From a phage, in the sequence record PX393110.1: a stretch of DNA of 64,000 nt; one strand, written 5' to 3'. Of the stretch, positions 11,486 to 40,048 are shown in pieces (the first letter of the stretch is position 1; the number at the start of each line of letters is the position of its first letter). The notes below the pieces were generated by a model. That model did not search any database, was not told the DNA's origin, and saw only the letters and a list, made by a program, of their open reading frames with translations. The translations under genes and the position numbers were made by a program.

Positions 11486-11486
11486 T

Positions 11487-12152: not shown

Positions 12153-12153
12153 G

Positions 12154-12345: not shown

Positions 12346-12355
12346 GGAGATTTAA

Positions 12356-22197: not shown

Positions 22198-23567
22198 ACA
22201 TAATTCAAGATTCCTCTCTATCCTTCGACCAGATCAGAACGGATTTAGAGAACTATATTAAGTCTCTGCCAGATTATGAGACTAAGTGGAAGGACTTCTA
22301 CGAAGCTGGTGCTGGTGAAACGGTACTTAATACTGGTGCTGGTATTACCGCATTCCTGGCCTATGCTGCCTATATGAACCGCCGAGATTCATTACTGGAT
22401 TTCGGCAACATGACTTCGACCATCGTGTCGATTGGTTCAGCATTAGGTTATGTATATAATCGTAAATCTGCTCCTCTTCTCCAGATTACGTTCACATCTA
22501 CGGAGCAAGTTTACTGGGATAAGGAAGATCCCATCGGTAACTACATGGGCCGCTCCATGGTTCTCACCAGCTCTACCCAAATAGAAGTCGGTGTGAATAC
22601 TATTGTAGTTGCTATCGGTGATTGGGTCTCTCAAGAGATAACCATCACAGATGCTAAGGATTTTAAAGGTATCAACGTACCTATCCAGCCTGATAACAAC
22701 CTGGTTAACCTGTATATTGATGGAGAGAAGATCTCCTACACTACAGCTGCTGAAGATATGGATTCGGATAATGTCCTAATTCGTTCTTACTTCTCGGGAA
22801 TATTCATTATCTTCGGGAACGGCGCACTGGGCAGGAAGGCTGCTGTTAACCAGGTACTTAAGATAGAGTACGTTGCTCCTGCTGATAAATTAGATGGGTT
22901 AACTCTGGATCCTACCAAGATTCAGTTATACGTTGAAAATACGAGTAACTCATCTGAAGTTAAATACCCTGGATCAGATCCTGATAGTCCTGAGAAAATC
23001 GTCGCTATTGCTCCTGGTTATTATTCAGCCAAGAGACGTCTGGTTACTCTGGACGATTACGCCTCGATAGGTGCTTCTTATCAGGGTGTGGTAAGTGCTA
23101 ACGCTGCTCTTCCGACTACTTCTTGCTGCTCGGTTAACGTCTCGTACCTACGAGCCGACGAATTAACCATGAATGATGCTATGAAGGCAGATTTCGAGAA
23201 GTACATGCTTCAGTACGCCATGTTGGGTTCTAATATAAATGTTATAGACCCTATCAGGATCATGGTCGATGTTAAGATGCGAGTGGTTATTGATTCCGGA
23301 GCTGATACGGACGCCATTACCAAGAAGATTCGCGAAACCATCAATAAAAAGTGCATGACTAGCGGTGCATTCTTTACGGTTAACGATATGACTCTGCCAG
23401 AGTCTCTTCGCGTTAGACGTATCTACATTAAGCAGCCTATTCTCGACAGACAGGCTAAGTACAATGAGTACTATAAGCTCCGCAAACTGGAGATAAGTTA
23501 TACGGAAGATCGAACTCTGGTAGATTCCGGAGGCACAGATAAGAATGCGGGGTATGAGTATGGCTAA
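22194..23567 (+). CDS. baseplate wedge protein (gpJ/gp6-like)
   Basis: 457 aa; follows gp25-like gene with overlapping start. Confidence 0.6.
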   Translation: MNIIQDSSLSFDQIRTDLENYIKSLPDYETKWKDFYEAGAGETVLNTGAGITAFLAYAAYMNRRDSLLDFGNMTSTIVSIGSALGYVYNRKSAPLLQITFTSTEQVYWDKEDPIGNYMGRSMVLTSSTQIEVGVNTIVVAIGDWVSQEITITDAKDFKGINVPIQPDNNLVNLYIDGEKISYTTAAEDMDSDNVLIRSYFSGIFIIFGNGALGRKAAVNQVLKIEYVAPADKLDGLTLDPTKIQLYVENTSNSSEVKYPGSDPDSPEKIVAIAPGYYSAKRRLVTLDDYASIGASYQGVVSANAALPTTSCCSVNVSYLRADELTMNDAMKADFEKYMLQYAMLGSNINVIDPIRIMVDVKMRVVIDSGADTDAITKKIRETINKKCMTSGAFFTVNDMTLPESLRVRRIYIKQPILDRQAKYNEYYKLRKLEISYTEDRTLVDSGGTDKNAGYEYG

Positions 23568-25038
23568 GTTCAACACTCTAGATTACTTCTCTCCTAACCT
23601 TAGAGGGAACGAGTTATATAAGTTCTTCTCGCAGGTGCTGGATCATGGTCTAGAGACTGTTGTCTTTCCGGAGATGGATAAAAATACGGCGATTTATGAT
23701 CCTAGTAAACCGTCGTATGATCCGATTTACATCCTGGAGCTACTGGGTCAACCAGACTTAGCAGATCTCATAACTACCGAGGTAGACCAGAACTCAGTAT
23801 CTGTACTCCTCCCAAGTATCCTAGATAATAAGGGTATGAAGGATGGGGTTGATCTTATCTTTAAACTGATAAATGTAGAGATAGACGAGATCCTGTATCA
23901 GAAGACTCCGGAAGGGTGCTCACTAGCAACCATCCTGCTTCCTAAGAACGTGATCTTGTCTACTCGACAAATTAAGCTAATTGATCGTCTGTCGCGTAAG
24001 GTATTTCCGATATGCGTCAGACTTACCGGTATCGCTAACTGTCTTCCAGATGGTGTTGAGTCTCTCGGAAGCGCCTCGCTGGACACCAGCTGGTTGTTGG
24101 ACACATCAATCCTGGATGGTTCGGTAGGTATACGAGTACCTGATATTTCAGATACTCTATGGTTAAGATTCTGTCTCGACATTATGTCAGAGATGGAAGT
24201 ACCTCTTGAAGTGCTGATTGATCGCTTCTCGGATCGTCTGATTAACTCTTATCTGACCGTATTCGACAGAAGAACTATCAGATTGGATAATGGTCTTATT
24301 CTGGACATGGGTACGTACTATGATCTCCAGAATACTGACACTACTCATAGCAGGCTTTATAGCTCATTAGCTGAGTTTAATGTCGATTTAAGCACCGACT
24401 CTAGAACTACCGAGATTGAGTCCTTACTGGACTTATCAGACCTGGTAGCTGGTCTGGAGTTTAAGTCCTCTATGCTGCGTGAGATCTTCCTATTCTTGGA
24501 TATCGACCTCTCAGAGTTCGGATTCGGGAATTACATGGATAGGAAGATAGAGCACTTATCCAAGGGGATAGAGCAAGTAAATTACGGCTATGAGGGTGGT
24601 AATTACGCTGATGGTTACGATTTAACTAACTATCAGAGTTTCGAATACGAGAACTTATACGTAATCCAATCTCATCATGATGGCCAAACTCAGCGTAGCG
24701 GGATGGCTTATTACGGATTGCCGGAAATAGACTGGCTACACTTCGAAGGTATGGACTTCATTAATGGGTCTTACCTGCTGGATGGTACTCGCTATCTTCA
24801 CCAGGAGTTCATTAAAAAGATCAAAGTGTACGATTGGTATACTCATTGGTCTAGCTACCGAGAAGCTATGTTCCTAACCACTCATAAGACCGAAAGACTC
24901 TTAGAGAAACGGGATGGGACTATTCTCCATGACGGAACTTATAATCGCGGTGAGAAAGTAACTCGTTACGGATTCGAACCTCTGTACAACGACGTTATTA
25001 GTCACGATGATACTTACTATCGCGATGCCAATCTATAG
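23560..25038 (+). CDS. baseplate/tail fiber attachment protein
   Basis: 492 aa; ATG at 23560 overlaps previous stop. Confidence 0.45.
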   Translation: MAKFNTLDYFSPNLRGNELYKFFSQVLDHGLETVVFPEMDKNTAIYDPSKPSYDPIYILELLGQPDLADLITTEVDQNSVSVLLPSILDNKGMKDGVDLIFKLINVEIDEILYQKTPEGCSLATILLPKNVILSTRQIKLIDRLSRKVFPICVRLTGIANCLPDGVESLGSASLDTSWLLDTSILDGSVGIRVPDISDTLWLRFCLDIMSEMEVPLEVLIDRFSDRLINSYLTVFDRRTIRLDNGLILDMGTYYDLQNTDTTHSRLYSSLAEFNVDLSTDSRTTEIESLLDLSDLVAGLEFKSSMLREIFLFLDIDLSEFGFGNYMDRKIEHLSKGIEQVNYGYEGGNYADGYDLTNYQSFEYENLYVIQSHHDGQTQRSGMAYYGLPEIDWLHFEGMDFINGSYLLDGTRYLHQEFIKKIKVYDWYTHWSSYREAMFLTTHKTERLLEKRDGTILHDGTYNRGEKVTRYGFEPLYNDVISHDDTYYRDANL

Positions 25039-25046
25039 GTGATTAG

Positions 25047-25814
25047 ATGAGCAATTATACTGGGGCATTTAACTTCCCTGCTCAGGTGTACCAATTTGAA
25101 GAGAGTGATGTGGTTAAAGGTGGTCCGGACGGCGTTGATAACGTGCCTCTTACCCAGCTTTCCGACCGTACGTTTTATCTTAAGGCTCTTGCAGATTTCA
25201 CATTCCTTAAGCTGTTCAATCTGAACCCTCTCGGATCATTCAAAGAAGGATTCCAGATTAACGTGGCTGGGTATGCAGTCTTCGACGAGGCCTCCGGTAA
25301 GTGGTTTAAGTGGACAGGATCTCTGCCTAAAGTGGTGGTTAAGTCTTCTAAGCCCGAAACTACTGGCGGTATCTATGATCCGGTCACTAATCCGAGCGGT
25401 AAGTGGGTGGCTATTGACTTCAGTGTTCTAGACCTTGGCGCTGGGGTTAAGATCCCTACAGCAGCTGCTCTTGGTAATCTGTATAGCGGTAAGTACAATC
25501 CTGCCTTCGTTAAGATTGAGAATGTCTCCAATCTGGACATAGCAGAAGCTACATATACCCGACTCGGGAATGTAGTTACTGTTAATGGCAAGATCACTGC
25601 TTCTGCTACTGATGCTGGAGAAGTAATGAAAATCGGAATTGGCTTACCTATTAACTCTACCTTCTCAGATGACTCAAGTCTCTCAGGAGTTGGTGTTGGT
25701 GTAGTAGCTGGTCAGATTTATGCCGATGTGGACAGTAGCGTGGCTGTTCTTGAGATTAATCAGGGTAGTACAGACGAGCTGTCTCTGAGATACACGTTCT
25801 CTTACACTGTATAA
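25047..25814 (+). CDS. short tail fiber-like protein with conserved N-terminal anchor module
   Basis: 255 aa; N-terminus shares the GGxDGxDNVP...L.DRT.YL motif with the next two tailspike genes. Confidence 0.55.
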   Translation: MSNYTGAFNFPAQVYQFEESDVVKGGPDGVDNVPLTQLSDRTFYLKALADFTFLKLFNLNPLGSFKEGFQINVAGYAVFDEASGKWFKWTGSLPKVVVKSSKPETTGGIYDPVTNPSGKWVAIDFSVLDLGAGVKIPTAAALGNLYSGKYNPAFVKIENVSNLDIAEATYTRLGNVVTVNGKITASATDAGEVMKIGIGLPINSTFSDDSSLSGVGVGVVAGQIYADVDSSVAVLEINQGSTDELSLRYTFSYTV

Positions 25815-25826
25815 TAGGATATCGAA

Positions 25827-28736
25827 ATGGGTGCTTATCAGGGTAAAAATCAGTACGTAGAGGACATCTATACCTTCGAACGTACTGACAAAGTGTCGGG
25901 TGGAGATGACGGTATTGATAACGTACCCATTAAGAATCTCACCGACAGAACTACATATCTCCGTAGTTTAGCATTGAATTCATTCCTGGATATCTATGGG
26001 GTTAATCCTGTAGGTACTTTCGGAATAGGGTTTGATCTTCAGGAATCTGGGGACGGAGTGTACGATGAGGTATCTGGCAAATGGTATTACTGGCTGGGCT
26101 CCTTCCCCAAATCTGTTGCCGAGAACTCATCTCCGGAAGATACTGGAGGTATTTTCGACCCAGAAAGTAATCCTGATGGGTTATGGACTGAGGTAATTCC
26201 GGTAAACCAGCGTCAGGTGGACATGATAGCTCGGGCATTCAGAGTTAAGACAGAGGAAGTCCAGTTCATGAAAGTAGGTCGTCCTCTCGACGGCTTTCGT
26301 GTACTGTATGACTTAACTTCTCAGGAAGCCTATCGTTTGCCGATGGATATTCCAGAAGGATCAACTGTCGTCAGTCTAACAGCTGGTGGATGGCTCGTAC
26401 ACAGCAATGGTGGGGTGGACTTATCTGCCTATGCTGTTGAATTAGAAGAGTACAAGCACTTTACTGGGGGAGACTTCAGTACTGGCTTTACTCTACGTCA
26501 GAACCACTGCGTAGTTATGTATGACGGTGTTATGTATCGCTGGGATGGGGATTTTCCTAAAACAGTAAATGACAACAGTACTCCCGAAGAAGATGGTATC
26601 GGTGAAGGTAAATGGGTGGCGGTGGGTCCAAATTCCAAATTGCTTTATAACATTACCTGGGATGGATCATATCCAGATCAACCAGTTATGGACGACCGCA
26701 CCCAGAGATTAAATCTACCACTACCGGTTCAAACTAATAAACTGGTGGATGACGTTGTACGTCTGCGCGAGACCATTTCAACTCTGGACGAGAAGGTGGC
26801 TACCGTTGGAAACGATGGTAAGATCCCGGTCGAGCAGATCCCAGCAGTAGCTATAACTGAAACATTTCCTGTCTCGAGCCAGGATGAGATGTTGGCTCTC
26901 AATGCCCAGAAGGGAGACATTGCCATCCGTGACGACAATAGCCTGAGCTACATTCTGATGAATGAGCCAGCTTCCACGTTGGAAAACTGGAAGAAGTTCA
27001 AGAATGACGCTCTGGTGCAGTTAGGTAAGAACGGCGGTGTGAATCTGGTTAGTGGAGCTATCCATGCAGCCACGGATCAGGATTCACTTACTTTCGAGAA
27101 CATAACAATTTCCGGTGAAGTATATAGTCACGACCCTAGCATATCTGGATTGGTTGAAGGATTCTCTGTCTATAACGGTAATTTATATCTCACTCGCAAT
27201 CAGATATCTTACAAGCTGTTGTCCAAAAGAAATAAGTTGCGCTGGCCTGGTCTGTACCTCTCTGGTGTAACTGATATGAAATCTTCGATTGAGGCCATTA
27301 TGAGCCATGGCCTCCACGTTGATCTTGATGGGAATGCTATCAGCGTATCTACCTTAAATATCACCAAAAATCTTTATAATGGTGAAATCATTGCTACTGG
27401 AGATACCGGCTCGTTCATTACTGTGAACTCGTGCAAGCTGCTTAGAACCAGGATCAACTGTAACAATAAGGCTATACGCCGTGCTGTGCATCTGAAAACT
27501 GGTTCAATCCGTCCTACTTTGAAAAACACTGAGATTTTTGACAGTTCCGGAGCTACTAATGCAAATGGTGTCTTTATTGACGCGAATAACATCACCGATT
27601 TCCTAGTAGAGGGCGTGTATGTCCATAATCTCACCTCTGTAGCTAATGGATCACAGGGAGATGCAGATGGTCCGTGCCGTGGGATTATCGTTGGCACGGC
27701 TCTTGACCCAGCGCCATCTGAGGCCACGGTATCTAGCGGAGAAATTAATAATGTACGTATCCGCGACTTGGCACCTTTCGAGGACTGCGATGGTGTTGTG
27801 GTTCAGATTTACGATGCCTCGTCTGTAATGCTTAGAGCATCTAAAATCCGCGTCAAAAACGTTGATACTCACAATGTCAGGAAGAGAGCCGTCAAGATTC
27901 AGGCGAACGATGTCACCGTGAGCAACGTCTATGCTTATTGCGATACAACCGATACAGCAATGTATTCAATCGTCAGTCTATATGGTGATAATGGGTATGC
28001 TGAGAATGTCACCGGACGAGGACGCATCAGTAATGGCATAGATTGCGCTTACGGCTTCAACAGAGTTAGCACACTTCACCTTAAAACCGAACGCACGGGT
28101 GCCGATACCCTTGCTGGGATTGGAGCAGGGTTGCTTATCAACTCCGGGCAAGTGGAAGCCAGTGGTATCTATTCCGAAGGTGCGGAATATGTTCTTGCTA
28201 TCAGGGATGCCCTTGGCGTGACACCTTACGTCAAAGTCTCTGGTCTTCGCGGGCAGGGTTACAGCGGAGTGGCTCGTTTCCAGATACGAGCCGGAAACTC
28301 TATCGGCAGCGTTTACATTGACGACGTTTCGGCAAATTCCTCGGCAACAAATAAATCGGCGATATCCGTAGACATAACGTCCAATGGAATAGGACTGGTA
28401 AATATCTCGGACGTGAAACGACTAAGTCAGCCATTCACCGGAGCAGACATTAATATGTCTGGGGCTGTCACGGAGGCAATTTTCCGCGATTGTATTCTAA
28501 ATTCTGGAAGCTCTACTGTTGGTATTTCCATGGCAACAGGAAAACTGACTGTTGAGAATATCAGTGCCCCTAGTAAGACGTATGCAGTTCAAGCTGTTCA
28601 GACGAGTAATTCATGGCTGAATAATATCGACGGAATAGTGCGTCTTGAGAATACGGCGAACACCAGACTTGGCCTCTATCGCGGAGTTTCTTCAGCTGGC
28701 ACAAACACTGGTCTTCTCACGTTGAATTATGCGTAA
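25827..28736 (+). CDS. tailspike protein 1 (beta-helix-type putative depolymerase)
   Basis: 969 aa; N-terminal anchor module; repetitive N/G/S/T-rich beta-strand segments in C-terminal half. Confidence 0.65.
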   Translation: MGAYQGKNQYVEDIYTFERTDKVSGGDDGIDNVPIKNLTDRTTYLRSLALNSFLDIYGVNPVGTFGIGFDLQESGDGVYDEVSGKWYYWLGSFPKSVAENSSPEDTGGIFDPESNPDGLWTEVIPVNQRQVDMIARAFRVKTEEVQFMKVGRPLDGFRVLYDLTSQEAYRLPMDIPEGSTVVSLTAGGWLVHSNGGVDLSAYAVELEEYKHFTGGDFSTGFTLRQNHCVVMYDGVMYRWDGDFPKTVNDNSTPEEDGIGEGKWVAVGPNSKLLYNITWDGSYPDQPVMDDRTQRLNLPLPVQTNKLVDDVVRLRETISTLDEKVATVGNDGKIPVEQIPAVAITETFPVSSQDEMLALNAQKGDIAIRDDNSLSYILMNEPASTLENWKKFKNDALVQLGKNGGVNLVSGAIHAATDQDSLTFENITISGEVYSHDPSISGLVEGFSVYNGNLYLTRNQISYKLLSKRNKLRWPGLYLSGVTDMKSSIEAIMSHGLHVDLDGNAISVSTLNITKNLYNGEIIATGDTGSFITVNSCKLLRTRINCNNKAIRRAVHLKTGSIRPTLKNTEIFDSSGATNANGVFIDANNITDFLVEGVYVHNLTSVANGSQGDADGPCRGIIVGTALDPAPSEATVSSGEINNVRIRDLAPFEDCDGVVVQIYDASSVMLRASKIRVKNVDTHNVRKRAVKIQANDVTVSNVYAYCDTTDTAMYSIVSLYGDNGYAENVTGRGRISNGIDCAYGFNRVSTLHLKTERTGADTLAGIGAGLLINSGQVEASGIYSEGAEYVLAIRDALGVTPYVKVSGLRGQGYSGVARFQIRAGNSIGSVYIDDVSANSSATNKSAISVDITSNGIGLVNISDVKRLSQPFTGADINMSGAVTEAIFRDCILNSGSSTVGISMATGKLTVENISAPSKTYAVQAVQTSNSWLNNIDGIVRLENTANTRLGLYRGVSSAGTNTGLLTLNYA

Positions 28737-28743
28737 CAGTGCC

Positions 28744-28761
28744 CCCGCTGCTTGGCGGGGT
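28744..28761 (+). terminator. GC-rich hairpin after tailspike 1 (no U-tract)
   Basis: CCCCGC-TGCTTG-GCGGGG stem-loop 8 nt after the stop codon. Confidence 0.3.
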
Positions 28762-28951
28762 CCCACCAACCGGAGGTCAACTACACTTATGAATAAGGTA
28801 TCCATAAAGTTTAGTAGCCTGATTTATGGCAGGTTCACGCTATCTACAAAAAGTGAAAATCATAGTCATAATGTAGGTGATTATGATTTTAACCAAGAGG
28901 AACTTACTCTCTGGTTTGGGAATTAGTATATAATATATTATAGGTGAATAA

Positions 28952-31936
28952 ATGTCTTATAATCCGATCTTAGAAGGATCAACCTGGCCGGAGACTATTC
29001 GTCGCTTAGAAAAGACGGATAGGGCGGAAGGTGGGCCACTAGTTACTAATTCTGAGGATGAACCAGTATCTGGACATATTAATCATCCAATAACTCAGTT
29101 AGCTACCAGAACTTCCATTTTAAAAAAGTATAATTTATCGATAATTAATAACACTAAAGAACAGTGGAAATTATTACTCGGTGACTTAGGACTAACTCTT
29201 GTTGGTACTTTTGAAGAAGGCGCTACTACTAACAGCAAGACTGATGCTGTTTGGCATATTGCTGGTGGTCAGTGTTACGTGTGGGGTGGTTTACTCCCTA
29301 AGACTGTATATGCTAACTCCACACCGCTAACTACTGGTGGTATCTCTGCTGATGCTTGGGTTAGTATTGGTGATGCCGCACTGCGAGGGCAAATATCAGA
29401 CCCGGACGGTGCGACAAAATACCCTGAATTGCAGATTGCTAGATGGCGTGACACTTTTGACCCTCGCGGTTGGGGAGCTAAAGGTGATGGATTAGTTGAT
29501 GATACTGTGGCTCTTAATAATCTGTTAAACGCTGCGCCAGTGGGTCAGAAAATTAATGGTAACGGTAGAACCTATAAAGTATCTGTGCTTCCAGATATTA
29601 GCCGATTCGTCAACACTCGTTTCGTTTATGAGCGTATTCCTGGCCAGACGCTTTATTATGTGTCTGACGAGTTTGTTCAGGGTGAGTTAATTAAAATAAC
29701 CGACACGCCTTATTACAATGCCTGGCCGCAGGATAAAGCGTTCGTTTACGACGATGTTATTTACTGTCCGTTCATGGCTAGCGATCGGCACGGGGTTAGC
29801 AGGCTGCATGTATCCTGGGTTCGCTCAGGTGATGACGGACAGACCTGGACGACCCCGGAGTGGCTAACCGACCTGCACCCTAATTACCCGACAGTTAACT
29901 ATCACTGTATGAGTATGGGTGTGATGCGCAACCGCCTATTTGCGATGATTGAAACCCGTACATTGGCATCTAACGCACTGGTGACTTGCGAGTTATGGGA
30001 TCGGCCCATGTCCCGTAACTACCATCCGACAGGTGGCATCACAAAAGCCGCCAACCAGCCTGTGGCTGTAATTACCATCCCTGAACACGGTCTTTTTGCT
30101 GGGGATTTTGTTAACTTCTCAAACTCTGGGGTGACTGGCGTTTCAGGGAATATGACTGTAACTTCAGTTATTGACCGCAACACGTTTACAGTTACCACGC
30201 CAAATCAACAAGCATTCGACCAAAATAACTCTACCAGCCGCTGGCATATGGGGACATCGTTCCATCAGTCACCATGGCGTAAAACCAGCCTTGGATTGAT
30301 CCCCATGGTTACCGAGGTTCACAGTTTTACCGCCATCAATAACGATTCATTCATGATGGGATATCACCAGGGTGATGTTGCTCCGCGTGAAGTCGGTATG
30401 TTGTATTTTCCGGATGCGTTCAACAATCCTGGGCTTTATCAGAAACGGCATATTCCTGCTGAATATGAGCCAGATGCGGCAGAACCCTGCGTTAAGTATT
30501 TTGACGGTGTTCTTTATGTTGTAACCCGTGGAACCAGGTCTGATCGTCTTGGTAGTTCTCTGCATCGCAGTAGCGACCTGGGGATTACCTGGCAATCACT
30601 GAGGTTTCCGAATAACGTCCACCACTCTACCCTGCCATTCGCTAAGGTAGGAAACGAACTGATTCTTTTCGGCACCGAACGCGCCGACAACGAGTGGGAA
30701 GCAAACGCACCGGATCAACGATATTTCAGTTCTTACCCACGGACGTTCTACACGAGAGTGAACCTCGACACCTGGAACCTGAATAATACTCAGTGGGTAA
30801 ATATCACTGATCAGATTTATCAGGGTGGTATTGTTAACTCTGGCGTCGGTGTCGGATCGGTCGTCGTGAAAGATAGTTATATCTATTACATGTTCGGTGG
30901 GGAAGACCATCTGAACCCATGGACATATGGAGATAACTTAGAGAAAGACCCATTCAAATCAGACGGTCATCCCTCAGATTTGTATTGTTACAAAATGCAG
31001 ATCGGTCCAGACAATCGTGTTTCTCGTGATTTCAGGTACGGTGCTGTACCTGACAGAGCGGTTCCAGTGTTTTTTGATACGAATGGAATTCGCACTGTTC
31101 CTGCGCCTATGGAGTTCACCGGTGATTTAGGGTTAGGTCATGTGACCATTAGAGCCAGCACCAGTAATAACGTTCGCTCTGAAGTTTTAATGGAAGGTGA
31201 GTATGGGTTTATTGGGAAATCTGTACCTACTAATAACCCAGCAGGACAGCGCACCATATTTTGCGGTGGCGAAGGAACCAGTTCTTCTACTGGTGCACAG
31301 ATTACGCTTTATGGTGCTAATAACACAGCTTCTCGCAGGATAGTTTACAACGGAGCTGAGCATCTGTTCCAGACTGCTGACGTTAAGCCTTATAACGATA
31401 ACGCGATTGCGCTCGGTGGGCCTAGCAACCGATTCACTACTGCATACCTCGGAAGCAACCCTATTGTTACTTCTAACGGGGAGAAGAAAACAGAGCCGGT
31501 ATTTTTTGACGATGCTTTTTTAGATGCTTGGGGCGACGTTCATTACATCATGTACCAGTGGTTGGATTCTGTACACTTGAAAGGAAATGACGCTAGAATT
31601 CATTTTGGCGTAATTGCTCAGCAGATCCGCGATGTATTCATTGCTCACGGTCTGATGGATGAGAATAGCACGGATTGCCGCTATGCCGTTCTGTGTTACG
31701 ACAAATATCCTCGCATGACAGACATGGTGTTCTCTCACAATGAAATCGTTGAACACACTGACGAGGAGGGTAATGTAACTACCACGGAAGAACCTGTATA
31801 CACCGAGGTGGTTATTCACGAAGAGGGTGAGGAGTGGGGTGTGCGGCCTGATGGAATTTTCTTTGCTGAGGCAGCATTCCAGAGAAGAAGACTGGAGAGA
31901 ATCGAAGCCAGACTTTCCGATCTTGAAAAGAAATAG
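28952..31936 (+). CDS. sialidase-like tailspike (endosialidase-like) with C-terminal intramolecular chaperone domain
   Basis: 994 aa; two Asp-box motifs (SGDDGQTW, SSDLGITW); GAKGDG motif; C-terminal S74-like chaperone region; distinct codon usage. Confidence 0.7.
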   Translation: MSYNPILEGSTWPETIRRLEKTDRAEGGPLVTNSEDEPVSGHINHPITQLATRTSILKKYNLSIINNTKEQWKLLLGDLGLTLVGTFEEGATTNSKTDAVWHIAGGQCYVWGGLLPKTVYANSTPLTTGGISADAWVSIGDAALRGQISDPDGATKYPELQIARWRDTFDPRGWGAKGDGLVDDTVALNNLLNAAPVGQKINGNGRTYKVSVLPDISRFVNTRFVYERIPGQTLYYVSDEFVQGELIKITDTPYYNAWPQDKAFVYDDVIYCPFMASDRHGVSRLHVSWVRSGDDGQTWTTPEWLTDLHPNYPTVNYHCMSMGVMRNRLFAMIETRTLASNALVTCELWDRPMSRNYHPTGGITKAANQPVAVITIPEHGLFAGDFVNFSNSGVTGVSGNMTVTSVIDRNTFTVTTPNQQAFDQNNSTSRWHMGTSFHQSPWRKTSLGLIPMVTEVHSFTAINNDSFMMGYHQGDVAPREVGMLYFPDAFNNPGLYQKRHIPAEYEPDAAEPCVKYFDGVLYVVTRGTRSDRLGSSLHRSSDLGITWQSLRFPNNVHHSTLPFAKVGNELILFGTERADNEWEANAPDQRYFSSYPRTFYTRVNLDTWNLNNTQWVNITDQIYQGGIVNSGVGVGSVVVKDSYIYYMFGGEDHLNPWTYGDNLEKDPFKSDGHPSDLYCYKMQIGPDNRVSRDFRYGAVPDRAVPVFFDTNGIRTVPAPMEFTGDLGLGHVTIRASTSNNVRSEVLMEGEYGFIGKSVPTNNPAGQRTIFCGGEGTSSSTGAQITLYGANNTASRRIVYNGAEHLFQTADVKPYNDNAIALGGPSNRFTTAYLGSNPIVTSNGEKKTEPVFFDDAFLDAWGDVHYIMYQWLDSVHLKGNDARIHFGVIAQQIRDVFIAHGLMDENSTDCRYAVLCYDKYPRMTDMVFSHNEIVEHTDEEGNVTTTEEPVYTEVVIHEEGEEWGVRPDGIFFAEAAFQRRRLERIEARLSDLEKK

Positions 31937-32056
31937 TAAATAAAGCTTTTTTACCGTAGGTAGGGGGGCTTCAATTTAAGATTTAACTTAAACCAATTAC
32001 CACTCTAAAGTTACTAAGTATTTGTACATCATGTAATATTTTTATGGAGATCACCA

Positions 32057-34678
32057 ATGGGCGGTCGTTCTAGGTTATTTAGCGAACTGGGCGGAGCTCC
32101 TCTTAATACTTATCAGCATGATAATCAGACTCTCGATATTCGCGAGTTAGAGAGTCAGCAGAAAGTATTAGACGAGACTCTTGCCGAAACAATCGGCGAT
32201 GTTAGCGAACTACAGCAGACTGCTGGACAGTCTATGTATATCCTCGGTAACTACGCTGCTGGAATGGTGATCGAGAACGACCGCCAGTACGTCAGACATG
32301 AGAATCTGCTGTACTACTGGACTGGTCCTGTACCGTTTACCACTACTGGTAACTTCTACGAAGAATCCTACTGGACTGGTGGGGTGCAGAGTGGTATCGA
32401 ATGGAGCTACGAAGTACAGGAAGATGGTGAGTTTGAGTTTGAAGTACCATACTCCTTCACCAGCGTACGCCTGTTCGTGGGTGGCGCTCGCCTTACTCGC
32501 GTAGAAGATTACACTATCGATGTGATTAATCGCAAGATCACTCTGACTAAGATTAAACTGTCGAAGGGCGTCCTGGTAACTGCCGAGCTGAATTCTCGTG
32601 ATGCTCTCAGCGTTACCCAGGATCGCATCGATAGCCTTACCAGAGAGATCTCAGAGAAAGTAGGCTTTGTTAACTACAAACTTACTGATCTGTCGGAAGG
32701 TCAGAGCCTTACCCTAACTACCAGAGTTCAGACTGTAAGCTTCTCACTAAATGGGGAGTATTACAAATGGGATGGTGTTCTTCCTAAAGTCGTTAACTAT
32801 GGAGATCCGGAACCAGCTCAATCTGAGCAGGGTACTGGTAAGTGGATTCCTGTAGGTTCTGGCGCCTTGAAATCAGAACTGGGCAAAGTCAGCGACACTA
32901 CTGGAGCGGTTCTTGTAGCTCTACCACAAGGCGGTAACGTGGCGAACGGTATTCGCTATGTAACTCCCGAAATGGCTGGTGCTAAAGGAGATGGTACCAC
33001 TGATGACACCACAGCCGTTCGTAACGTTGTAGCTCTCGCCAAATTAACTGGTCTTAAAATCACCGGTGGAGCGAACTATAAGATCTCGAATGCTTCAATC
33101 GATATCTCTGGTACTGTCATTGAGAACCTACGTCTTAAAGGAAGTGGGTCTAGCTCTATACTGCTAGTTAATGGCAATACTGCCATATCTAATCTAACCC
33201 TAAATAGGGTAGGTATTAGACACACTAACGGTATCTTAAACCTGGACAAATTTGAGATCAATGACTGTAGTGCTACTGCGGCTATTTTAAGCCTTCAGCT
33301 AACATCACCTGGACAAATATTTCTCACCAATGGTGTTATGCGTCGTTGTAATTACGGTTACCTTCGTCAGGGATCTCCAGCTTCTTCCCAGCCGCTGACT
33401 ACTTCATTACTTCGGAATTTACAATTCTTCGATATGAAGGGTGATCCAATCGAGATCAATCTGGCGATAGCTGATACCAACACTACTATCGATCAAATAA
33501 CCATAGATAACGTGGACTCCACAGCTACCGGGAATACTAACTGGGGTATTGCTATAGGCTTAGCTGGGATGGGTAACTACTCACCCACTGCCGCAGACTC
33601 AGAGTACATGTCTGATGTAACCATAAGTAATATTAAGATTACCGGAGCCAAACAGTGTCTGCACTTGGAGAAATGCAGAAACATTAGAATCAGAAATATC
33701 GACATACATCCGGATTCCACTAAGTCAACCGGAGTTGGGTTGGATACTGGTGGTTTCATAGCTTATGGATGTAAAGAGATATACGTGGATGGTGTAACTG
33801 GGTCTCCAACCAACGGAACGGAAGATATGATTCGTTTCGCTTGGGGATCTGTTAACAATGCGTTTACCTTCGCTCATCGAAATGTGCACTTAAGAAACGT
33901 CAATGTAACAGGTACTGTTAAAGTGGAGGTTAGCTGTTCTGATACCCTAGCTTCGACTGTAGAGATGAGAAATATCAATGCAACAACGATATCTCTCCAA
34001 GGCATGGCGTCTGAATACCAGCTGTCAGATTGGTCCGCTGAGAAGATGGTGTTGGATTTCAGATATGTTAGCGGAGATGCTAGAGATAATTACCGTAGAA
34101 ATGCGTGGTCAATTGCTACCATCAGTAATTTGAAATGCCTGAATTCTAACACTGGCGCTCCTGAGGTTACTGTACAGAACATCACTGTGGATACATTGGA
34201 AGTTTCTGGGTGTAACTTCCCTATCCAGAAGACTTTAACTGCTACCCATTGGAGAGGAACTCCTGCATGGCGGCAGAATGGTATTATTTACCACTCTAAG
34301 ACCGGAACTCCTTATGGCATGGCTCTTCTTGCTGGTGACACTATCGTTGCTAGTGACGGAACTATGTTCACGGTGACCTCCCCTGGAGCTCTGTTCTACT
34401 CAAACGAAACTGTTGCGGCCGCTACTGCTGGGTCTAACGCTATTCGTTCTAAAACTAACCTTAACTGGACTGGTCAGTATTATAAGACTGCTGGGTGTAA
34501 GGTTAAAATAGCAGGAGGTGGAGGTGCTGACGGCTCTGATTACATCGGTACTATTGTCCGCAGTGGTTATATTAACAGTGGTAATTACTACTTTGATGTT
34601 TACCCACCACTTCAGTCTAACGTACCTGATGGCGCAGTATTAACTTCCGTAGAAGTACCAGCCTTTAAAACAGTTTAA
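32057..34678 (+). CDS. tailspike protein (pectate-lyase-like beta-helix)
   Basis: 873 aa; GAKGDGTTDDTTAV motif typical of pectate_lyase_3-type tailspikes; internal YKWDGVLPK module. Confidence 0.65.
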   Translation: MGGRSRLFSELGGAPLNTYQHDNQTLDIRELESQQKVLDETLAETIGDVSELQQTAGQSMYILGNYAAGMVIENDRQYVRHENLLYYWTGPVPFTTTGNFYEESYWTGGVQSGIEWSYEVQEDGEFEFEVPYSFTSVRLFVGGARLTRVEDYTIDVINRKITLTKIKLSKGVLVTAELNSRDALSVTQDRIDSLTREISEKVGFVNYKLTDLSEGQSLTLTTRVQTVSFSLNGEYYKWDGVLPKVVNYGDPEPAQSEQGTGKWIPVGSGALKSELGKVSDTTGAVLVALPQGGNVANGIRYVTPEMAGAKGDGTTDDTTAVRNVVALAKLTGLKITGGANYKISNASIDISGTVIENLRLKGSGSSSILLVNGNTAISNLTLNRVGIRHTNGILNLDKFEINDCSATAAILSLQLTSPGQIFLTNGVMRRCNYGYLRQGSPASSQPLTTSLLRNLQFFDMKGDPIEINLAIADTNTTIDQITIDNVDSTATGNTNWGIAIGLAGMGNYSPTAADSEYMSDVTISNIKITGAKQCLHLEKCRNIRIRNIDIHPDSTKSTGVGLDTGGFIAYGCKEIYVDGVTGSPTNGTEDMIRFAWGSVNNAFTFAHRNVHLRNVNVTGTVKVEVSCSDTLASTVEMRNINATTISLQGMASEYQLSDWSAEKMVLDFRYVSGDARDNYRRNAWSIATISNLKCLNSNTGAPEVTVQNITVDTLEVSGCNFPIQKTLTATHWRGTPAWRQNGIIYHSKTGTPYGMALLAGDTIVASDGTMFTVTSPGALFYSNETVAAATAGSNAIRSKTNLNWTGQYYKTAGCKVKIAGGGGADGSDYIGTIVRSGYINSGNYYFDVYPPLQSNVPDGAVLTSVEVPAFKTV

Positions 34679-34702
34679 TAGATTAAACTGAGGAGATTAT
34701 TG

Positions 34703-36154
34703 ATGTCCACCCAATTGCCAGATAGTCTGCAGCCAAGCAGCCTTAAGTATAAAGGTGACTATGCGGCTGGTATTTACCTTAACGGAAACCACTGCATCCT
34801 TCGCTTTGTACGCACTGATGGTAAGAAGGTGTTGGTTAAGTGGGTGGGGGAAGTCCCCCACACCACCGACGGCGAGACTCCGTATACCGATACCGACCAA
34901 ACTACTCTTAAAGCTGGTTACGAGCTCTTCTCCCAGACGAATGCAGTAGACTTCATTATTTCAATGTTCAGTTCCTCCACATCCTGGCGCTATATCGGCC
35001 AGGTTAACTCTGTGGAAGATCTGAAGACTATCACTCCTAAGGATGGCGATCGAGTGATAGTTAAAGGCTACTTCGGGGAAGGTACTCCCGGAGGTGGTGA
35101 GTTCCGAGTTAAGACTACCAATGACTCTATTCCTTCGGACAGTAAGGATGTAGTCAATGGTTGGGTACGAGTTCGTCGTAGCAAGGAGTATCACGCTACC
35201 GAGTTTGGTGCTGTTCCTGATAAGTTAACTGACTCTACTGGTCAGGTTCAGGATATGCTCACTACTATCACCACTGGTCTGGCTATAATTGATCCTGGTG
35301 TTAAGTATACCCTAGCTAACTTAACTATCAAGCCTGGCGTCCAGATTCTGGATATGTCTGGATGGGACGGTAGTTCATGGACGGCTGCAGTGAGATTCAT
35401 CAGTAACTCTACTGATGGGTTGATAATCTCTTCTGCATCCAATGCTAACCTTAACCTCAACAGTAACAACGGGTTAGCCAGAGCTAAGGTATCTTACAGC
35501 GTAAGCGGAACTAAGATCTGGGAATCGGGTATGAGCGATGACTCTAACCGAGACTGGCATGTTCTTCGAGGATCTGAGTCTCGTTACCGTGTGGTATCTG
35601 CTTCCCAGGCTCACGCATGGAACAGAGATACCATAGTTGAAGGTGTCGATTACCACTACGGTAAGAGAGCATCTGAGAATCATGTTCTTCGCTACGATGC
35701 AGTGAGTACTGGCTATGATATCATTCATACCTATTACCACGGTACCACTCTCACCTCTAAGATAACCCATAAAGGCGATGGATCAGTAATCCTGACCCAG
35801 AATGGTAAGGATACCATCAAGATAGTAGATGGTGTAATGACTGGTGCCCTGAAGAAGATCATCACGTCTACAGCTAACGTAACTCTTACTGCAGCTGATA
35901 CTGGTGCTATTTGCACTACTGATGGTGCCACTTCTTCGGTTACCATTACCCTGCCAGTAGCTGTTCCTGGTATGACCTATGATGTACTCGTAGGTGCCAA
36001 CTACAGCGTATCAGTGAAAACTGGCGGTACAGATCTCTTCCGTAATGGGAACGCTACTGTTTCTAACTCGGATAAGGGATCCTGGTTACGCTTAGTTTGC
36101 GCTATCTCCGGTTACTGGGAGATGGATACTGTTCAGGGTACCTGGGCAAGTTAA
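34703..36154 (+). CDS. tail fiber/tailspike protein
   Basis: ATG at 34703 after GAGGAG RBS; 483 aa; beta-rich, anchor-like N-terminus. Confidence 0.55.
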   Translation: MSTQLPDSLQPSSLKYKGDYAAGIYLNGNHCILRFVRTDGKKVLVKWVGEVPHTTDGETPYTDTDQTTLKAGYELFSQTNAVDFIISMFSSSTSWRYIGQVNSVEDLKTITPKDGDRVIVKGYFGEGTPGGGEFRVKTTNDSIPSDSKDVVNGWVRVRRSKEYHATEFGAVPDKLTDSTGQVQDMLTTITTGLAIIDPGVKYTLANLTIKPGVQILDMSGWDGSSWTAAVRFISNSTDGLIISSASNANLNLNSNNGLARAKVSYSVSGTKIWESGMSDDSNRDWHVLRGSESRYRVVSASQAHAWNRDTIVEGVDYHYGKRASENHVLRYDAVSTGYDIIHTYYHGTTLTSKITHKGDGSVILTQNGKDTIKIVDGVMTGALKKIITSTANVTLTAADTGAICTTDGATSSVTITLPVAVPGMTYDVLVGANYSVSVKTGGTDLFRNGNATVSNSDKGSWLRLVCAISGYWEMDTVQGTWAS

Positions 36155-36170
36155 TTAAACGGAGACTACT

Positions 36171-36992
36171 ATGTCCTTTATGGTATTGGCCGAAAGTGGC
36201 CACATAGCTTTAGCTAAAACGGTGCATGATGCAAATCTGCACTTTGCATGGGGCACCATCCCAGATGCTGTAGCTGCTCCAGAAACCATGTCTGCCTCCG
36301 CGGTAGATGGTGGTACTCTGGATCCTGCCACGTATACTTATGTGGTTACTGCAGCCAACAAATTCGGTGAAACCACCGCATCCATGGCTGCTACTGCTAC
36401 TATCGTTGCTTCGGCTTCTCAGCAGTCTATTCAGTTAAACTGGGGTGCATCTGCGAATGCTGAGAAATACATCATCTATCGCCAGGGCACCAACTCCTAT
36501 GATAAAATTGGTGAGTCTACTTCTAATACTTTTACTGATAACGGCAGCACTACTCCAGATAGCTCGGTTAATCCTCCTACGACGAACACTACATTCCCGT
36601 CTGCATGGACTAAACCAGCACCTAACCCGGACCCGTCGCTACCTGATATGTATGCTGAAGTCGGACGCCGTAAGATCCTCACCAAGGAATATGTGAAACA
36701 GGATCCTAATGGTACCATCGAGACTTCAGAAGGAAAGTGGTCTATCTCCGATAAGCCAACTAAGCATCTGTATCTGCATGTTCAGTTTAACTATACTGAT
36801 GCTCCAGATGACATGATCTACCAGTTCGCTATCTTCATAGGGACTGTACCTACTGATGGTAATGAGAATGCTCTTTACCTCACCCCAGATATGATTAAGG
36901 AAAAGGGAGAGATGCTCGGAATTGAGAACCATACCCTGATTATTCGTGAGTCCACTACCCGCGAAGGTCATTCCGTCATCCTCACGTTCTAA
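36171..36992 (+). CDS. tail fiber-associated hypothetical protein
   Basis: 273 aa; S/T/P-rich linker; lies within the fiber array. Confidence 0.45.
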   Translation: MSFMVLAESGHIALAKTVHDANLHFAWGTIPDAVAAPETMSASAVDGGTLDPATYTYVVTAANKFGETTASMAATATIVASASQQSIQLNWGASANAEKYIIYRQGTNSYDKIGESTSNTFTDNGSTTPDSSVNPPTTNTTFPSAWTKPAPNPDPSLPDMYAEVGRRKILTKEYVKQDPNGTIETSEGKWSISDKPTKHLYLHVQFNYTDAPDDMIYQFAIFIGTVPTDGNENALYLTPDMIKEKGEMLGIENHTLIIRESTTREGHSVILTF

Positions 36993-37003
36993 CGGAGTAA
37001 TAA

Positions 37004-40000
37004 ATGGCAACTTTACCGTCTGATTACTTTAACAGATTCGCGGCTAAGAAGAACTATGCCAAGCATCTGTTTATCGCGGACAGACCGCTCCAGAGCTCGG
37101 AGCTAAATGAAATTCAGGATCAGCAGCTCAATAACGTCTCTACACTGTCCGGCTTCTTGGTCGGTGATGGTGCCATTACTGATGGGGCGGATATTTCCGC
37201 TCTTGGGGACGGTGTGATCTCTATCACTGAGGGTACGTTAATCTATGCCGGTATGGCTATGAACGTACCCGCTGTTACGGATGCATCGTTCCCGACTGCT
37301 GGAGAGGCTGTTTTAGGTGTATCTATCTCTGATAAGGTAATCACCTATCTCGATGATCCTGAGCTTCTCATGCAGTATCAGAACTCTCCGAGCTATGGTT
37401 CAGCTGGTGCTGACCGTCTCCAGAAGGTGACTACTTGGCTGTTAGCCGATGATGTCCCAGAGGGAGATACCTTCTTCCCAGTATTCTACTTCAAGAATGG
37501 CGTACTGGTAAAAACCACTAAGTCTCGTAACGATCTCGACCAGTTCTCTGGTCTTCTGGGTCGCTACGACTCTGATACCCATGGTAACTACGTACTGGAT
37601 GGCCTTACTCTGTCCTATGCAGGTATCGATGGTTCCACCCAGCAGATCATGTTGAACATGGCTGCGGGCAAGGCTCGTGTACTTGGCAACGAAGCACTGT
37701 TCGCCTATGAAAGTACCGTGCGTCTGGACCCTATCAACGATACCGGTAACGTAGCTTCCGAGCCGTATGTGTTTACAGCAGGTACTTATACCTATCAATT
37801 GCGCTACTCTGTAATTGATCAGGTAACTGCTGTTTCTGGTACTAAGCAGGTAACTCGTACGGTAACTCATGGCTCCGCAACGGGTTCGTCTGACTTACTT
37901 CCGGATACTCCTGTTCTGCAGATTATTTCTGTGCAGCAGGGTGGTACTGTCTACGTTAAAGGTAGTGACTATGTACAGAACGGGGACTCTGTAGACTGGT
38001 CACCTACTGGTAACGAACCATCTCCTGGTTCTACTTATCAGGTTACGTACCAGTACATTGACCAGTTCATCCCGACCTGGAACGATACCTCTATCACTAT
38101 TTCCACCAGTGATGCTCTGGTATCTGGGTCTACGTTCTACGTAACCTACTCTTACTTCCTGTCTCGCTATGACCGTGTATCTATCGATGCCTCCGGCGCG
38201 GTGCAGATTACTAAGGGTATTCCAGCAATCCTGGCGAATGCTCAGTTGCCAGGTACTTCCGCTACGTTGCTGTCCATTGCAACTATTCGTCTGACTAAAG
38301 GTCAGGATCCGGTCATCAACAATGATCGTATCGAAGTAGTTACTTATAATGAGCTGAAAGATCTGATGTCTCTGGTAAGCGACATGCAGTACAACATCGC
38401 CCAGCTTTCGCTTCGTGATGAAACTCGCTCTACCGATCCGACTACGACTAAGAAAGGTGTGGTAGTTGACTCTCTGCTTAACGGTAACATGCGTGATGAT
38501 GGTCTTACCAACAACGCCATCGTTGATGAAGGTCAGCTGTTCATCGGAGCATCTTTCTCTCGTCAGTCTAGCCTGGCTCCTGATGGTCTTATGTTATCGT
38601 TTACCGATACCGTAATTCAGTCTCAGGAATTCCGTACCAAGGATACTCGCATCAACCCGTATGCTGGTTCCGGCCAGGTACCTCAGGCGATGATCTCTGT
38701 GTCTCCAGCTAAGATCGATACTCGTGGCTTCTGGTCGTACTTCCATGGTGGATTCCTGCCAGTGGATACTACGATTACGATTAAGCTGTCTGGGTATGCT
38801 GCTAATGAGCAGATTGATCTTACGTTCCGTAACCTCGCAGTGGTTACCTTGGTTGCGGATGACAACGGTACAGCACAGTATGCTCATATGCTATCTGGTG
38901 GCTTGATTAACGGTACGTATCAGTATGTTGCTACCGGTAAGACTACTAAGGCTGTGACTCGCGGTACAGTAACCATCTACAACTCCGGTAGGGTCGACTA
39001 CGGTCAGAACTGGACTGGTGGTGCTGTGCCATGGGGTTACGACCCAGTAGCTCAGACTTTCACTATCCAGGCTACTCGTGATATTAACGCAGTGTCTATC
39101 TACCTAACTGAACTGCCTACTAACACGCTCCAGATTAAACTGGTTCCGACTAAGGTCGGTATTCCGGACTCTACCCAGCTTTACGGCTTCGGTGAAGTTC
39201 CGGCTAATAAATGCGTGCTGGGATGGAACAAGATCAATCTTCGTTATCCAGTAACGGTAACTGGCGGTACTGAGTACTCCATCATCGTCGCTACGGCTAA
39301 CTATCAGGGTAAGGTGGCTACAGCTAAGATTAACGGGTACGATACCGATAAGAAACAGTATGTAGTGAATCAGCCAGCGCAGGGTGTACTGTTAACTTCT
39401 GCGAACGAATCTACCTGGTCTCCGGTTCAGGATGAAGACTTGATGTATCGTCTCCATGCCACTAACTATGGCTCTACCCGTACCGTGAACTTAGGTTCTG
39501 TAACAGTAGCTAGCAATACCAACAGTCTGTCACTGACTGCTGATATTGAGACTCCGGCAAATACCTCCGTGAGATTCTACCTCACTAACGGTACTGATAA
39601 CATTAACCTCAACGTTAACTCTGAAACGTACACTGAGAACTTCTCTGGTACTTTCAGTCTGATGGCAGAGTTTAATACTGGTGATCCTACTGTATCTCCG
39701 AAGGTCTTCGGTGGCGTCATCTTCCGTTCTGGCACTACTGATACTCCTGGGGTATATACCCAGCGTCAGTTCAGTATTCCTAACGGTAACGTTACTCCGG
39801 TAACGCTTAACGTCATCCTGGATCAGTATGTGCCATCTGGTGCCAGCGTAACTGTTCAGTACCAGAATGGTAGTAACTGGGTAGCCTTGACTGGGGGCAC
39901 CGGAACCGCTCTGGGAGATGGGTGGTATACCGTACCTTACAAACTGTCAGGAGTCAATGTGGCTAATACCCGCATCCGTATCATCCTGTCTCTGTCTAAC

Positions 40001-40048
40001 CCAGTTAACCGTCCGTTCGTTAAGAACGTTCGCGCATACTTTAGCTAA
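37004..40048 (+). CDS. large tail fiber/baseplate attachment protein
   Basis: 1014 aa; long beta-rich G/T/S/V-rich protein at end of fiber array. Confidence 0.55.
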   Translation: MATLPSDYFNRFAAKKNYAKHLFIADRPLQSSELNEIQDQQLNNVSTLSGFLVGDGAITDGADISALGDGVISITEGTLIYAGMAMNVPAVTDASFPTAGEAVLGVSISDKVITYLDDPELLMQYQNSPSYGSAGADRLQKVTTWLLADDVPEGDTFFPVFYFKNGVLVKTTKSRNDLDQFSGLLGRYDSDTHGNYVLDGLTLSYAGIDGSTQQIMLNMAAGKARVLGNEALFAYESTVRLDPINDTGNVASEPYVFTAGTYTYQLRYSVIDQVTAVSGTKQVTRTVTHGSATGSSDLLPDTPVLQIISVQQGGTVYVKGSDYVQNGDSVDWSPTGNEPSPGSTYQVTYQYIDQFIPTWNDTSITISTSDALVSGSTFYVTYSYFLSRYDRVSIDASGAVQITKGIPAILANAQLPGTSATLLSIATIRLTKGQDPVINNDRIEVVTYNELKDLMSLVSDMQYNIAQLSLRDETRSTDPTTTKKGVVVDSLLNGNMRDDGLTNNAIVDEGQLFIGASFSRQSSLAPDGLMLSFTDTVIQSQEFRTKDTRINPYAGSGQVPQAMISVSPAKIDTRGFWSYFHGGFLPVDTTITIKLSGYAANEQIDLTFRNLAVVTLVADDNGTAQYAHMLSGGLINGTYQYVATGKTTKAVTRGTVTIYNSGRVDYGQNWTGGAVPWGYDPVAQTFTIQATRDINAVSIYLTELPTNTLQIKLVPTKVGIPDSTQLYGFGEVPANKCVLGWNKINLRYPVTVTGGTEYSIIVATANYQGKVATAKINGYDTDKKQYVVNQPAQGVLLTSANESTWSPVQDEDLMYRLHATNYGSTRTVNLGSVTVASNTNSLSLTADIETPANTSVRFYLTNGTDNINLNVNSETYTENFSGTFSLMAEFNTGDPTVSPKVFGGVIFRSGTTDTPGVYTQRQFSIPNGNVTPVTLNVILDQYVPSGASVTVQYQNGSNWVALTGGTGTALGDGWYTVPYKLSGVNVANTRIRIILSLSNPVNRPFVKNVRAYFS

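Follow-up and report, generated by a model that had tools for sequence, protein, structure and literature searches.

In phage CBA120 the TD1 domain of one tailspike binds the XD domain, which is T4 gp10-like, of another (PMC8825819, PMC11414711). The 'head' of the same tailspikes also contains the D2 (TD2) domain (PMC8825819), which is the Pfam domain Tail_spike_N and occurs in G7C gp66 as well. In other contractile tails the receptor-binding proteins contact BW3 and BW3TFN (PMC10811340). BW3TFN is the BW3-tail fibre network connector, of the family of T4 gp8, A511 gp105 and the arm segment of phage 812 (PMC10811340, PMC13433997). Here we describe the gene cluster at positions 25047-40048 of a 64,000-nucleotide (nt) stretch of phage DNA (record PX393110.1), referred to below as the window. 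The cluster is probably the host-recognition module of a lytic Escherichia coli myovirus of the small IME392/EP_H11 clade, in which five spikes would be displayed together, each composed of an attachment part, a joint and a variable part.

Seven tightly packed plus-strand open reading frames (ORFs), P1 to P7, were found in this interval. It is the distal end of a myovirus baseplate module, because central-spike, gp25-like and wedge genes lie upstream of it and an endolysin gene lies downstream. A first-pass annotation of the DNA had described an array of at least five receptor-binding proteins within six consecutive plus-strand genes. The array was borne out, as P1-P5 are adjacent and built on common N-terminal modules. 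The listed ORFs were also found at the coordinates given for them, but a 273-amino acid (aa) gene (36171-36992) had been overlooked, which makes seven genes in total. The supposed sixth fibre or spike of 1014 aa turned out to be a DUF4815 baseplate protein. It lacks both of the modules described below. Identity to its counterparts in IME392 and EP_H11 is 96-97%, even where the spike set of the relative is wholly different. The genes of the cluster are as follows.

25047..25814, plus strand: P1, 255 aa, receptor-binding protein
25827..28736, plus strand: P2, 969 aa, receptor-binding protein
28952..31936, plus strand: P3, 994 aa, receptor-binding protein with a K1F-type endosialidase
32057..34678, plus strand: P4, 873 aa, receptor-binding protein of the colanidase type
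34700..36154, plus strand: P5, 484 aa with a TTG start (483 aa from the next ATG at 34703)
36171..36992, plus strand: P6, 273 aa, BW3TFN connector (PF25691)
37004..40048, plus strand: P7, 1014 aa, DUF4815 baseplate protein (PF16075)

The locus resembles that of CBA120 in having a row of tailspike genes that follows the wedge genes and adjoins a DUF4815-type gene, and in having homologous TD1-TD2 (D1-D2, PF18668) heads together with one candidate XD-like domain. It differs from CBA120 in that no spike matched the N-terminal anchor of TSP4 (340 residues), the PDB matches beginning at D1/D2, and in that three of the spikes start with a fibre block of the Mu-like type. CBA120 has XD in two tailspikes and D1 in all four, whereas one candidate XD-like domain and one TD1 were found here. 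In addition, a separate BW3TFN gene is present, and the backbone is unrelated at the nucleotide level. The locus is also like those of the Ackermannviridae in that receptor-binding domains are exchanged downstream of conserved N-terminal domains, and the beta-helix of P2 has an Agtrevirus tailspike as its relative. Phage phi92 is likewise a contractile-tailed coliphage with endosialidase and colanidase spikes and further fibres; P4 is a homologue of its gp150, and P3 matched the phi92-type endosialidase structure 4hiz. However, the wedge of phi92 is described as gp145/gp146, with fibres on the gp145 C-terminal domain and on one another, whereas the window has BW3TFN and DUF4815 genes and other anchors, and no backbone similarity between the two was found. 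The arms of phages 812 and A511, made of an arm scaffold (BW3), an arm segment (BW3TFN) and a tripod, have their counterpart in the BW3TFN and DUF4815 genes encoded beside the receptor-binding genes, but the receptor-binding proteins themselves are unrelated. The cluster belongs with the multi-spike phages of the CBA120, phi92 and G7C types, and its combination of anchor types is one without structural characterisation.

Two repeated modules recur among the spikes. The first is an N-terminal block (GG.DG.DNVP...L.DRT.YL) that had been assigned to the first three proteins of the array. The exact pattern was found at only two sites in the six-frame translation, in P1 and P2, whereas in P3 the block has diverged and contains 10 inserted residues. 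Smith-Waterman alignment of the first 55-65 residues alone gave scores of 135 for P1-P2, 60 for P1-P3 and 50 for P2-P3. The shuffled controls had a mean of ~21 and a standard deviation of ~4, and 0 of 2000 shuffles reached the observed scores, so that the block is significant in all three proteins. Between P1 and P2, BLASTP gave 48% identity over residues 1-123 (E = 1e-40).

With a 60-aa query of the block, tblastn found matches at the starts of tail-fibre genes (E = 4e-6 to 6e-4), namely in the Mu-like phage BcepMu and in phiE255, Klebsiella phage KP12 and Pasteurella phage AFS-2018a. For several of the records the match also covered a neighbouring 'tail protein' feature, which one record names 'tail protein I'. 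It is the first ~47 residues of P1 and P2 that align with these fibre starts (gp52 in BcepMu), and they also align with collar-domain fibres in metagenomes. The PHROG tail-fibre N-terminal matches were in register with it. Three database proteins have the block alone in common and continue with different domains, a Collar domain in one of the three. From these alignments the block appears to be an independent, mobile N-terminal fibre module, and it is a better candidate for the true baseplate anchor than the second module. To our knowledge, the Mu-like and small myophages with such a fibre apparently have one such gene each, whereas here the block is present in triplicate and fused to tailspike modules.

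The second module (W.G..PK.V) is the Pfam domain PF18668, Tail_spike_N. The exact pattern [YF][KYR]W.G.[LF]PK.V...GG...W[VI] occurred at four sites in the whole window, all of them within spike genes. With a gathering score of 25 bits for this family, P1 (37.9), P2 (86.3, in two stretches), P3 (55.7) and P4 (25.7) all scored above it. P4 (aa 62-108) and P5 (aa 19-64) each have a degenerate N-terminal copy below the Pfam and small hidden Markov model thresholds; against the second copy of P2 these scored 59 and 81, respectively, which 0 of 2000 shuffles reached. In total, seven D2 copies were found in the five proteins P1-P5 and none elsewhere in the window, including the 273-aa and 1014-aa proteins. 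The module was said to recur both at the N-termini and internally, which is confirmed, and pairwise alignment as a check showed both common blocks to be statistically significant. In these proteins the module marks the joint where receptor-binding domains are swapped. Two proteins of 1526 and 1034 aa in the representative library matched P4 ~14-109 in 11 and 14 separate stretches, and they seem to contain tandem arrays of a degenerate Tail_spike_N-like unit.

Downstream of the joint the five proteins differ. The clearest assignment was obtained for P3, with the following features on the plus strand.

aa 1-62: diverged N-terminal block
aa 79-143, nt 29186-29380: D2
aa 171-840, nt 29462-31471: K1F-type endosialidase
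aa 841-994, nt 31472-31933: self-cleaving C-terminal chaperone domain

All four parts of an endosialidase (beta-propeller, beta-barrel, N-terminal extension and stalk) were found in P3, and the Pfam matches were PF12217 (9e-204), PF12219 (9.8e-77), PF12195 (2.3e-40), PF12218 (4.8e-34) and PF13884 (2.5e-8). The match to PDB 3gvl/1v0e had E = 0 over aa 171-840, and that to the chaperone structure 3gw6 had 3.4e-174. P3 was 80% identical to K1F gp17 (endoNF) over 918 aa, without gaps and at an offset of +70. Glu581, Arg596 and Arg647 in K1F numbering, which we take to be the catalytic residues of endoNF, align with the identical residues E511, R526 and R577 of P3. Similarly, the chaperone cleavage residues S911/K916 of K1F align with the identical S841/K846, and in the K1F record the chaperone mat_peptide is annotated from S911. 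The K1 polysialic-acid capsule is the predicted substrate of P3. It has the Tail_spike_N, beta-propeller, beta-barrel, stalk, catalytic residues and self-cleaving chaperone of K1F gp17, whereas the T7-type N-terminal adaptor of that protein (aa 1-146) is replaced in P3 by a 76-residue region with the myovirus-type N-terminal block.

P4 has an N-terminus of its own and the following features on the plus strand.

N-terminus, beginning MGGRS: own to P4, predicted coiled coil
aa 62-108: degenerate D2
aa 110-182, nt 32384-32602: candidate XD-like (T4 gp10-like) domain
aa 213-270, nt 32693-32866: D2 (PF18668, 25.7 bits)
aa 275-866: colanidase-type beta-helix

The beta-helix of P4 (aa 275-866) matched residues 27-616 of phi92 gp150 (PDB 6e0v, 1.4e-66), and P4 matched phrog_6117 'colanic acid degradation' with 4e-170. 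Its ortholog in contig L005, a relative from the Logan assemblies, bears PF27800 WcaM. P4 is predicted from these matches to cut colanic acid. As a TD1 the middle domain of P4 was rejected, with an hhalign probability of 0.15%.

P2 is the spike with the most head domains, all on the plus strand.

aa 1-50: N-terminal block
aa 57-125: D2, copy a
aa 132-205, nt 26220-26441: TD1
aa 206-270, nt 26442-26636: D2, copy b
aa ~330-410: linker domain
aa ~400-969: beta-helix receptor-binding domain

PF18668 matched P2 in its two stretches with 1.5e-24. Residues 133-326 of P2 matched residues 21-218 of CBA120 TSP1 (PDB 4oj5, 1.7e-30), and the TD1-TD2 tandem at aa 133-270 matched TSP1, TSP3 and TSP4 with 1.7e-30 to 5e-26, as well as G7C-type proteins. 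The TD1, which was present in P2 only, had 45-47% identity to D1 of CBA120 TSP1/3/4. The beta-helix was 64% identical to gp168, the spike in the TSP4 position of the Agtrevirus Shigella phage Gloob, and P2 is predicted to bind or cut, probably, an O-antigen-type polysaccharide. An internal copy of the N-terminal block at aa 270-335 of P2 had been suspected from the match to a 560-aa protein of EP_H11, and was dropped when shuffling gave no support; the likeness to that protein sits in the following domain, at aa ~330-410.

P1 and P5 are smaller, and their features, again on the plus strand, are these.

P1 aa 1-50: N-terminal block
P1 aa 57-125, nt 25215-25421: Tail_spike_N/D2 (PF18668, 1.9e-9)
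P1 aa 126-255: small all-beta C-terminal domain (130 residues)
P5 aa 19-64, nt 34754-34891: degenerate D2
P5 after the degenerate D2: depolymerase-like region (phrog_4250, PDB 6e1r)

The AlphaFold2 model of P1 from the single sequence had a predicted local distance difference test (pLDDT) score of 35. With a shallow alignment of eight sequences the model was marginal, at 51 overall and 55-78 in the C-terminal domain. A fold search returned the reovirus sigmaC head, the adenovirus knob and the Det7 tailspike, all non-significant (E >= 0.09). P5 matched phrog_4250 'EPS depolymerase' over aa 85-222 (4.7e-11) and the PDB 6e1r tailspike (0.002), and its ortholog bears PF27114 Phage_tail_beta. The full-length identity of P5 is 93% with its counterpart in IME392 and 39% with that in EP_H11. 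It is the sole spike kept full-length in all relatives, and is confined to the IME392/EP_H11 clade.

The structural genes of the window were 96% identical to those of Escherichia phage vB_EcoM_IME392 (116 kb) and 95% identical to those of EP_H11 (111 kb), the sole two relatives in the phage collection searched. IME392 is classified among the unclassified Caudoviricetes. Scans of IMG/VR with BW3 and with DUF4815 gave no relatives, and a few further ones, including contig L005, were found in the Logan assemblies. The homologue searches returned one protein for P5, none for the P4 N-terminus and six for P1, and an exhaustive search of the representative library with the P4 N-terminus returned five. 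With so few homologues, deep profiles could not be built for P1, P5 and the P4 N-terminus. Members of this lineage are very scarce in public data.

Four versions of the locus were compared, from the window, IME392, EP_H11 and L005, and the anchors were found to stay in fixed slots. Slot A (N-terminal block plus D2) is occupied by P1 and P2 in the window, by a 255-aa and a 305-aa protein in IME392, by a 316-aa protein in L005, where the locus is cut off, and by a single 780-aa spike in EP_H11. IME392 keeps both P1/P2 anchor paralogues at 93-96% identity. The 305-aa and 316-aa proteins consist of anchor, TD1 and D2 only, without a receptor-binding body, and are followed by several fibre genes and tail-fibre assembly chaperones (PF16778; IME392 6781-12595, L005 1-4711). 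In the window the same anchor is joined to the 700-residue beta-helix, a fused form next to the split one. The window and IME392 have the endosialidase in slot B (diverged N-terminal block), where L005 has an unrelated beta-helix and EP_H11 yet another domain. Slot C (P4 N-terminus) holds a colanidase-type body in the window, IME392 and L005 and a different body in EP_H11, and slot D is P5.

The homology between the window and IME392 ends at nt 26617 (P2 aa ~264) and picks up again at 28935. Within P4, nt 32826-34324 (aa ~256-756) are ~70% identical to IME392 as compared to ~90% in the flanks, and between P3 and the L005 protein the identity stops at aa ~143. In these alignments the swap breakpoints fall right after Tail_spike_N, with the anchors being kept. 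No long DNA repeats were found between the repeated modules within the window.

The genes that flank the cluster were examined as possible docking partners of the spikes.

Upstream of the cluster: central-spike gene (PF04717)
Upstream of the cluster: gp25-like gene (PF04965)
Upstream of the cluster: 457-aa baseplate wedge subunit (phrog_219)
23545..25038, plus strand: 497-aa protein, candidate BW3, directly after the gp25-like gene and the gene of the 457-aa wedge subunit
Downstream of the cluster: GH19 endolysin

The 497-aa protein is a candidate BW3, in the position of P2 gpI and T4 gp7 (P2 being here the phage), and is likely to be the docking platform for the spikes. P6 matched PF25691 (BW3TFN) with 8.1e-25 and 88.2 bits (cutoff 27). 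P7 matched PF16075 (DUF4815) with 1.1e-129 and 433.8 bits (cutoff 30), as well as PDB 9euf, among the phage 812 baseplate entries, with 5.5e-44; the phage 812 chain in question is presumably the tripod protein. A collinear homologue of P7 is CBA120 orf209, a 1612-aa 'conserved hypothetical' (3976-8814; best segment E = 5e-14), which adjoins the tailspike genes of that phage; tailspike genes followed by DUF4815 are thus a gene order common to this locus and the Ackermannviridae. P6 and P7 are conserved baseplate parts and not swappable spikes.

Identity to EP_H11 was determined per 50 residues along the module. BW2, the flanking wedge protein, was 96-100% identical, and BW3 was 90-100% identical in residues 1-200 and 28-58% in residues 200-497. 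The spike anchors (44-76%), P5 (20-54%) and BW3TFN (P6, 48-83%) were diverged, and DUF4815 (P7) was 86-100% identical. The divergence from EP_H11 is one contiguous block from mid-BW3 to the end of BW3TFN (window 24150-36992), and the whole spike-holding unit may have been exchanged as one piece. The co-divergence fits with anchors that contact the C-terminal half of BW3 and BW3TFN.

These results are consistent with the following assembly. Five different trimeric receptor-binding proteins, P1-P5, would be made together with the baseplate, and all of them would most likely be carried on each of the six wedges. Each would be built from an attachment part, followed by a joint (Tail_spike_N, D2/TD2) and a variable receptor-binding part. 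The attachment part would be the short N-terminal block in P1, P2 and P3 and the unrelated N-terminus in P4, and P5 would have only its degenerate joint domain. The N-terminal parts may dock on the C-terminal half of BW3 (497 aa) and on the BW3TFN connector (273 aa), and the parts downstream of the joint would be enzymatic or binding domains. New specificities would arise by recombination immediately after the joint, the anchors staying in their slots. Since XD (candidate in P4) and TD1 (P2) are the pair that links tailspikes in CBA120, part of the assembly may be branched.

The first-pass annotation had proposed a branched, multivalent adsorption apparatus with a broad or switchable host range. 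Multivalency is well supported by homology and is the best reading of the locus, because the C-terminal domains encoded by five adjacent receptor-binding genes are predicted to differ in specificity: one for polysialic acid, one for colanic acid, and one an Agtrevirus-like beta-helix. The host range may be broad. For branching, one XD-like domain (P4) and one TD1 (P2) were found, which would point by analogy to a physical branch. A link between P2 and P4 is plausible on these domain matches, and the anchor-only slot A proteins of IME392 and L005 suggest adaptor-type branching.

Several points weigh against a branched assembly of five spikes docked on BW3. The XD assignment depends on a comparison of shallow profiles, in which P4 aa 110-182 matched the XD2/XD3 profile of CBA120 TSP4/TSP2 with an hhalign probability of 74% (E = 2.8e-5). 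A PDB search in which the middle domain of P4 was joined by poly-G to the C-terminus of P5 was dominated by linker artefacts and gave no XD match. The C-terminus of P5 as an XD1-like domain, a visual impression, was rejected at an hhalign probability of 0.9%. EP_H11 retains the XD-like domain without a TD1-bearing partner, and therefore the TD1-XD link cannot be general. BW3 was assigned by gene position alone and had no Pfam or PHROG match, and the co-divergence of BW3 and the anchors could reflect a single contiguous recombination tract and not co-adaptation. That all five spikes are in the virion is a prediction from the genes. P1 and P2, with anchors that are 48% identical, might compete for one site, and the fold of the P1 C-terminal domain is uncertain in the models obtained.

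The alternative that survives best is a multivalent but unbranched apparatus, in which each trimer docks independently on an extended BW3/BW3TFN/DUF4815 periphery, as in phage 812/A511 or phi92. The same N-terminal fibre block is present in three spikes, and in small myophages this block would dock directly on the wedge; the BW3TFN and DUF4815 genes are present, and these families form multi-site arms in phage 812. In phi92 one wedge protein has separate sites for fibres I and III, both bound directly, although fibre II is mounted on the base of fibre I. While the XD evidence is moderate, with EP_H11 lacking a TD1 partner, P2 has the TD1-TD2 tandem of the CBA120 type at E = 1e-30, and the P4 domain matches XD2/XD3 and not TD1. 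Moreover, the anchor-only proteins of 305-316 aa in slot A of IME392 and L005, with fibre genes after them, look like adaptors for other fibres. We regard independent docking throughout as possible but rather doubtful.

Parallel and branched attachment may also be combined. Such a hybrid periphery would unite Mu-like docking peptides, three times over, with the TD1/TD2/XD domains of the Ackermannviridae and a BW3TFN plus DUF4815 scaffold of the A511/812 type. It would carry at least five trimers (~30 per virion), partly in parallel and partly branched, and everything from mid-BW3 to BW3TFN would be exchanged en bloc. We put this forward tentatively; if true, the arrangement is one not yet seen structurally.

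It is unlikely that some of the five proteins are purely structural adaptors or decoration, which would leave a true valency of three; P1 could for example be a cap or plug, and P5 a conserved baseplate strut. P1 is small and its C-terminal fold uncertain, but this domain is all-beta, and viral fibre heads came first, without significance, among its fold matches. P5 is conserved over its whole length in every relative, with very few homologues outside them, and anchor-only proteins do occur in the relatives (305 aa in IME392 and 316 aa in L005). However, P5 is depolymerase-like (phrog_4250, PDB 6e1r), and its 39% identity to EP_H11 is to be compared with 96-100% for true structural proteins.

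As a mechanism, the switchable host range was not upheld: no invertible segment was found, and the genes all share one strand. A search for inverted repeats in the window gave nothing beyond short imperfect chance matches, and in a promoter and terminator scan the sites were no more frequent than in shuffled sequence. Switching by an invertible segment or by repeats was rejected, with no inverted repeats beyond these matches and no long direct repeats found. Among the relatives, switching is seen over evolutionary time only, as cassette exchange. It is improbable that the same-anchor paralogues (P1, P2 and perhaps P3) compete so that particles with different sets make the host range switchable at the population level: their anchors are 48% identical over 123 aa (P1/P2) and EP_H11 has only one protein with an anchor of this type, but anchors at that level of identity can easily differ in site specificity, the retention of both paralogues at 93-96% in IME392 suggests that both are needed, scans of the locus found no regulatory or inversion element, and the different fibres or spikes of phi92 and CBA120 are described as carried together.

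Some genes outside the cluster were also recorded. A dCTP deaminase-like gene (43602-44225, minus strand) and a dUTPase gene (44511-44981, minus strand) are present in the window. In a 2025 paper IME392 and EP_H11 are listed as candidate 'RP13-like' phages with hypermodified thymidine (PMC12686479). Because of these genes and this listing of the relatives, the DNA of the phage may be modified. Two different cell-wall hydrolases (GH19 endolysin and Hydrolase_2 family), an Rv2179c-like exoribonuclease and a NADAR-domain protein are encoded at 40259-40906 (plus strand), 42818-43180 (minus strand), 45934-46647 (minus strand) and 47352-48011 (minus strand). The guanine-cytosine skew changes sign near 41-42 kb, at the flip in transcription direction.

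Interchangeable anchor modules, as found in this cluster, are a real and already familiar way of carrying several host-recognition proteins, and the current picture of multi-spike phages is unchanged. The cluster adds one more example of a joint domain common to tailspikes of very different backbones, here the Ackermannviridae, the K1F-type podoviruses and the IME392/EP_H11 clade. It points to the glycans that the lineage is equipped against: colanic acid, the capsule of K1 strains and, probably, an O-antigen. The position right after Tail_spike_N, where spikes are cut and re-joined, would be useful for host-range engineering in a K1-targeting myovirus.

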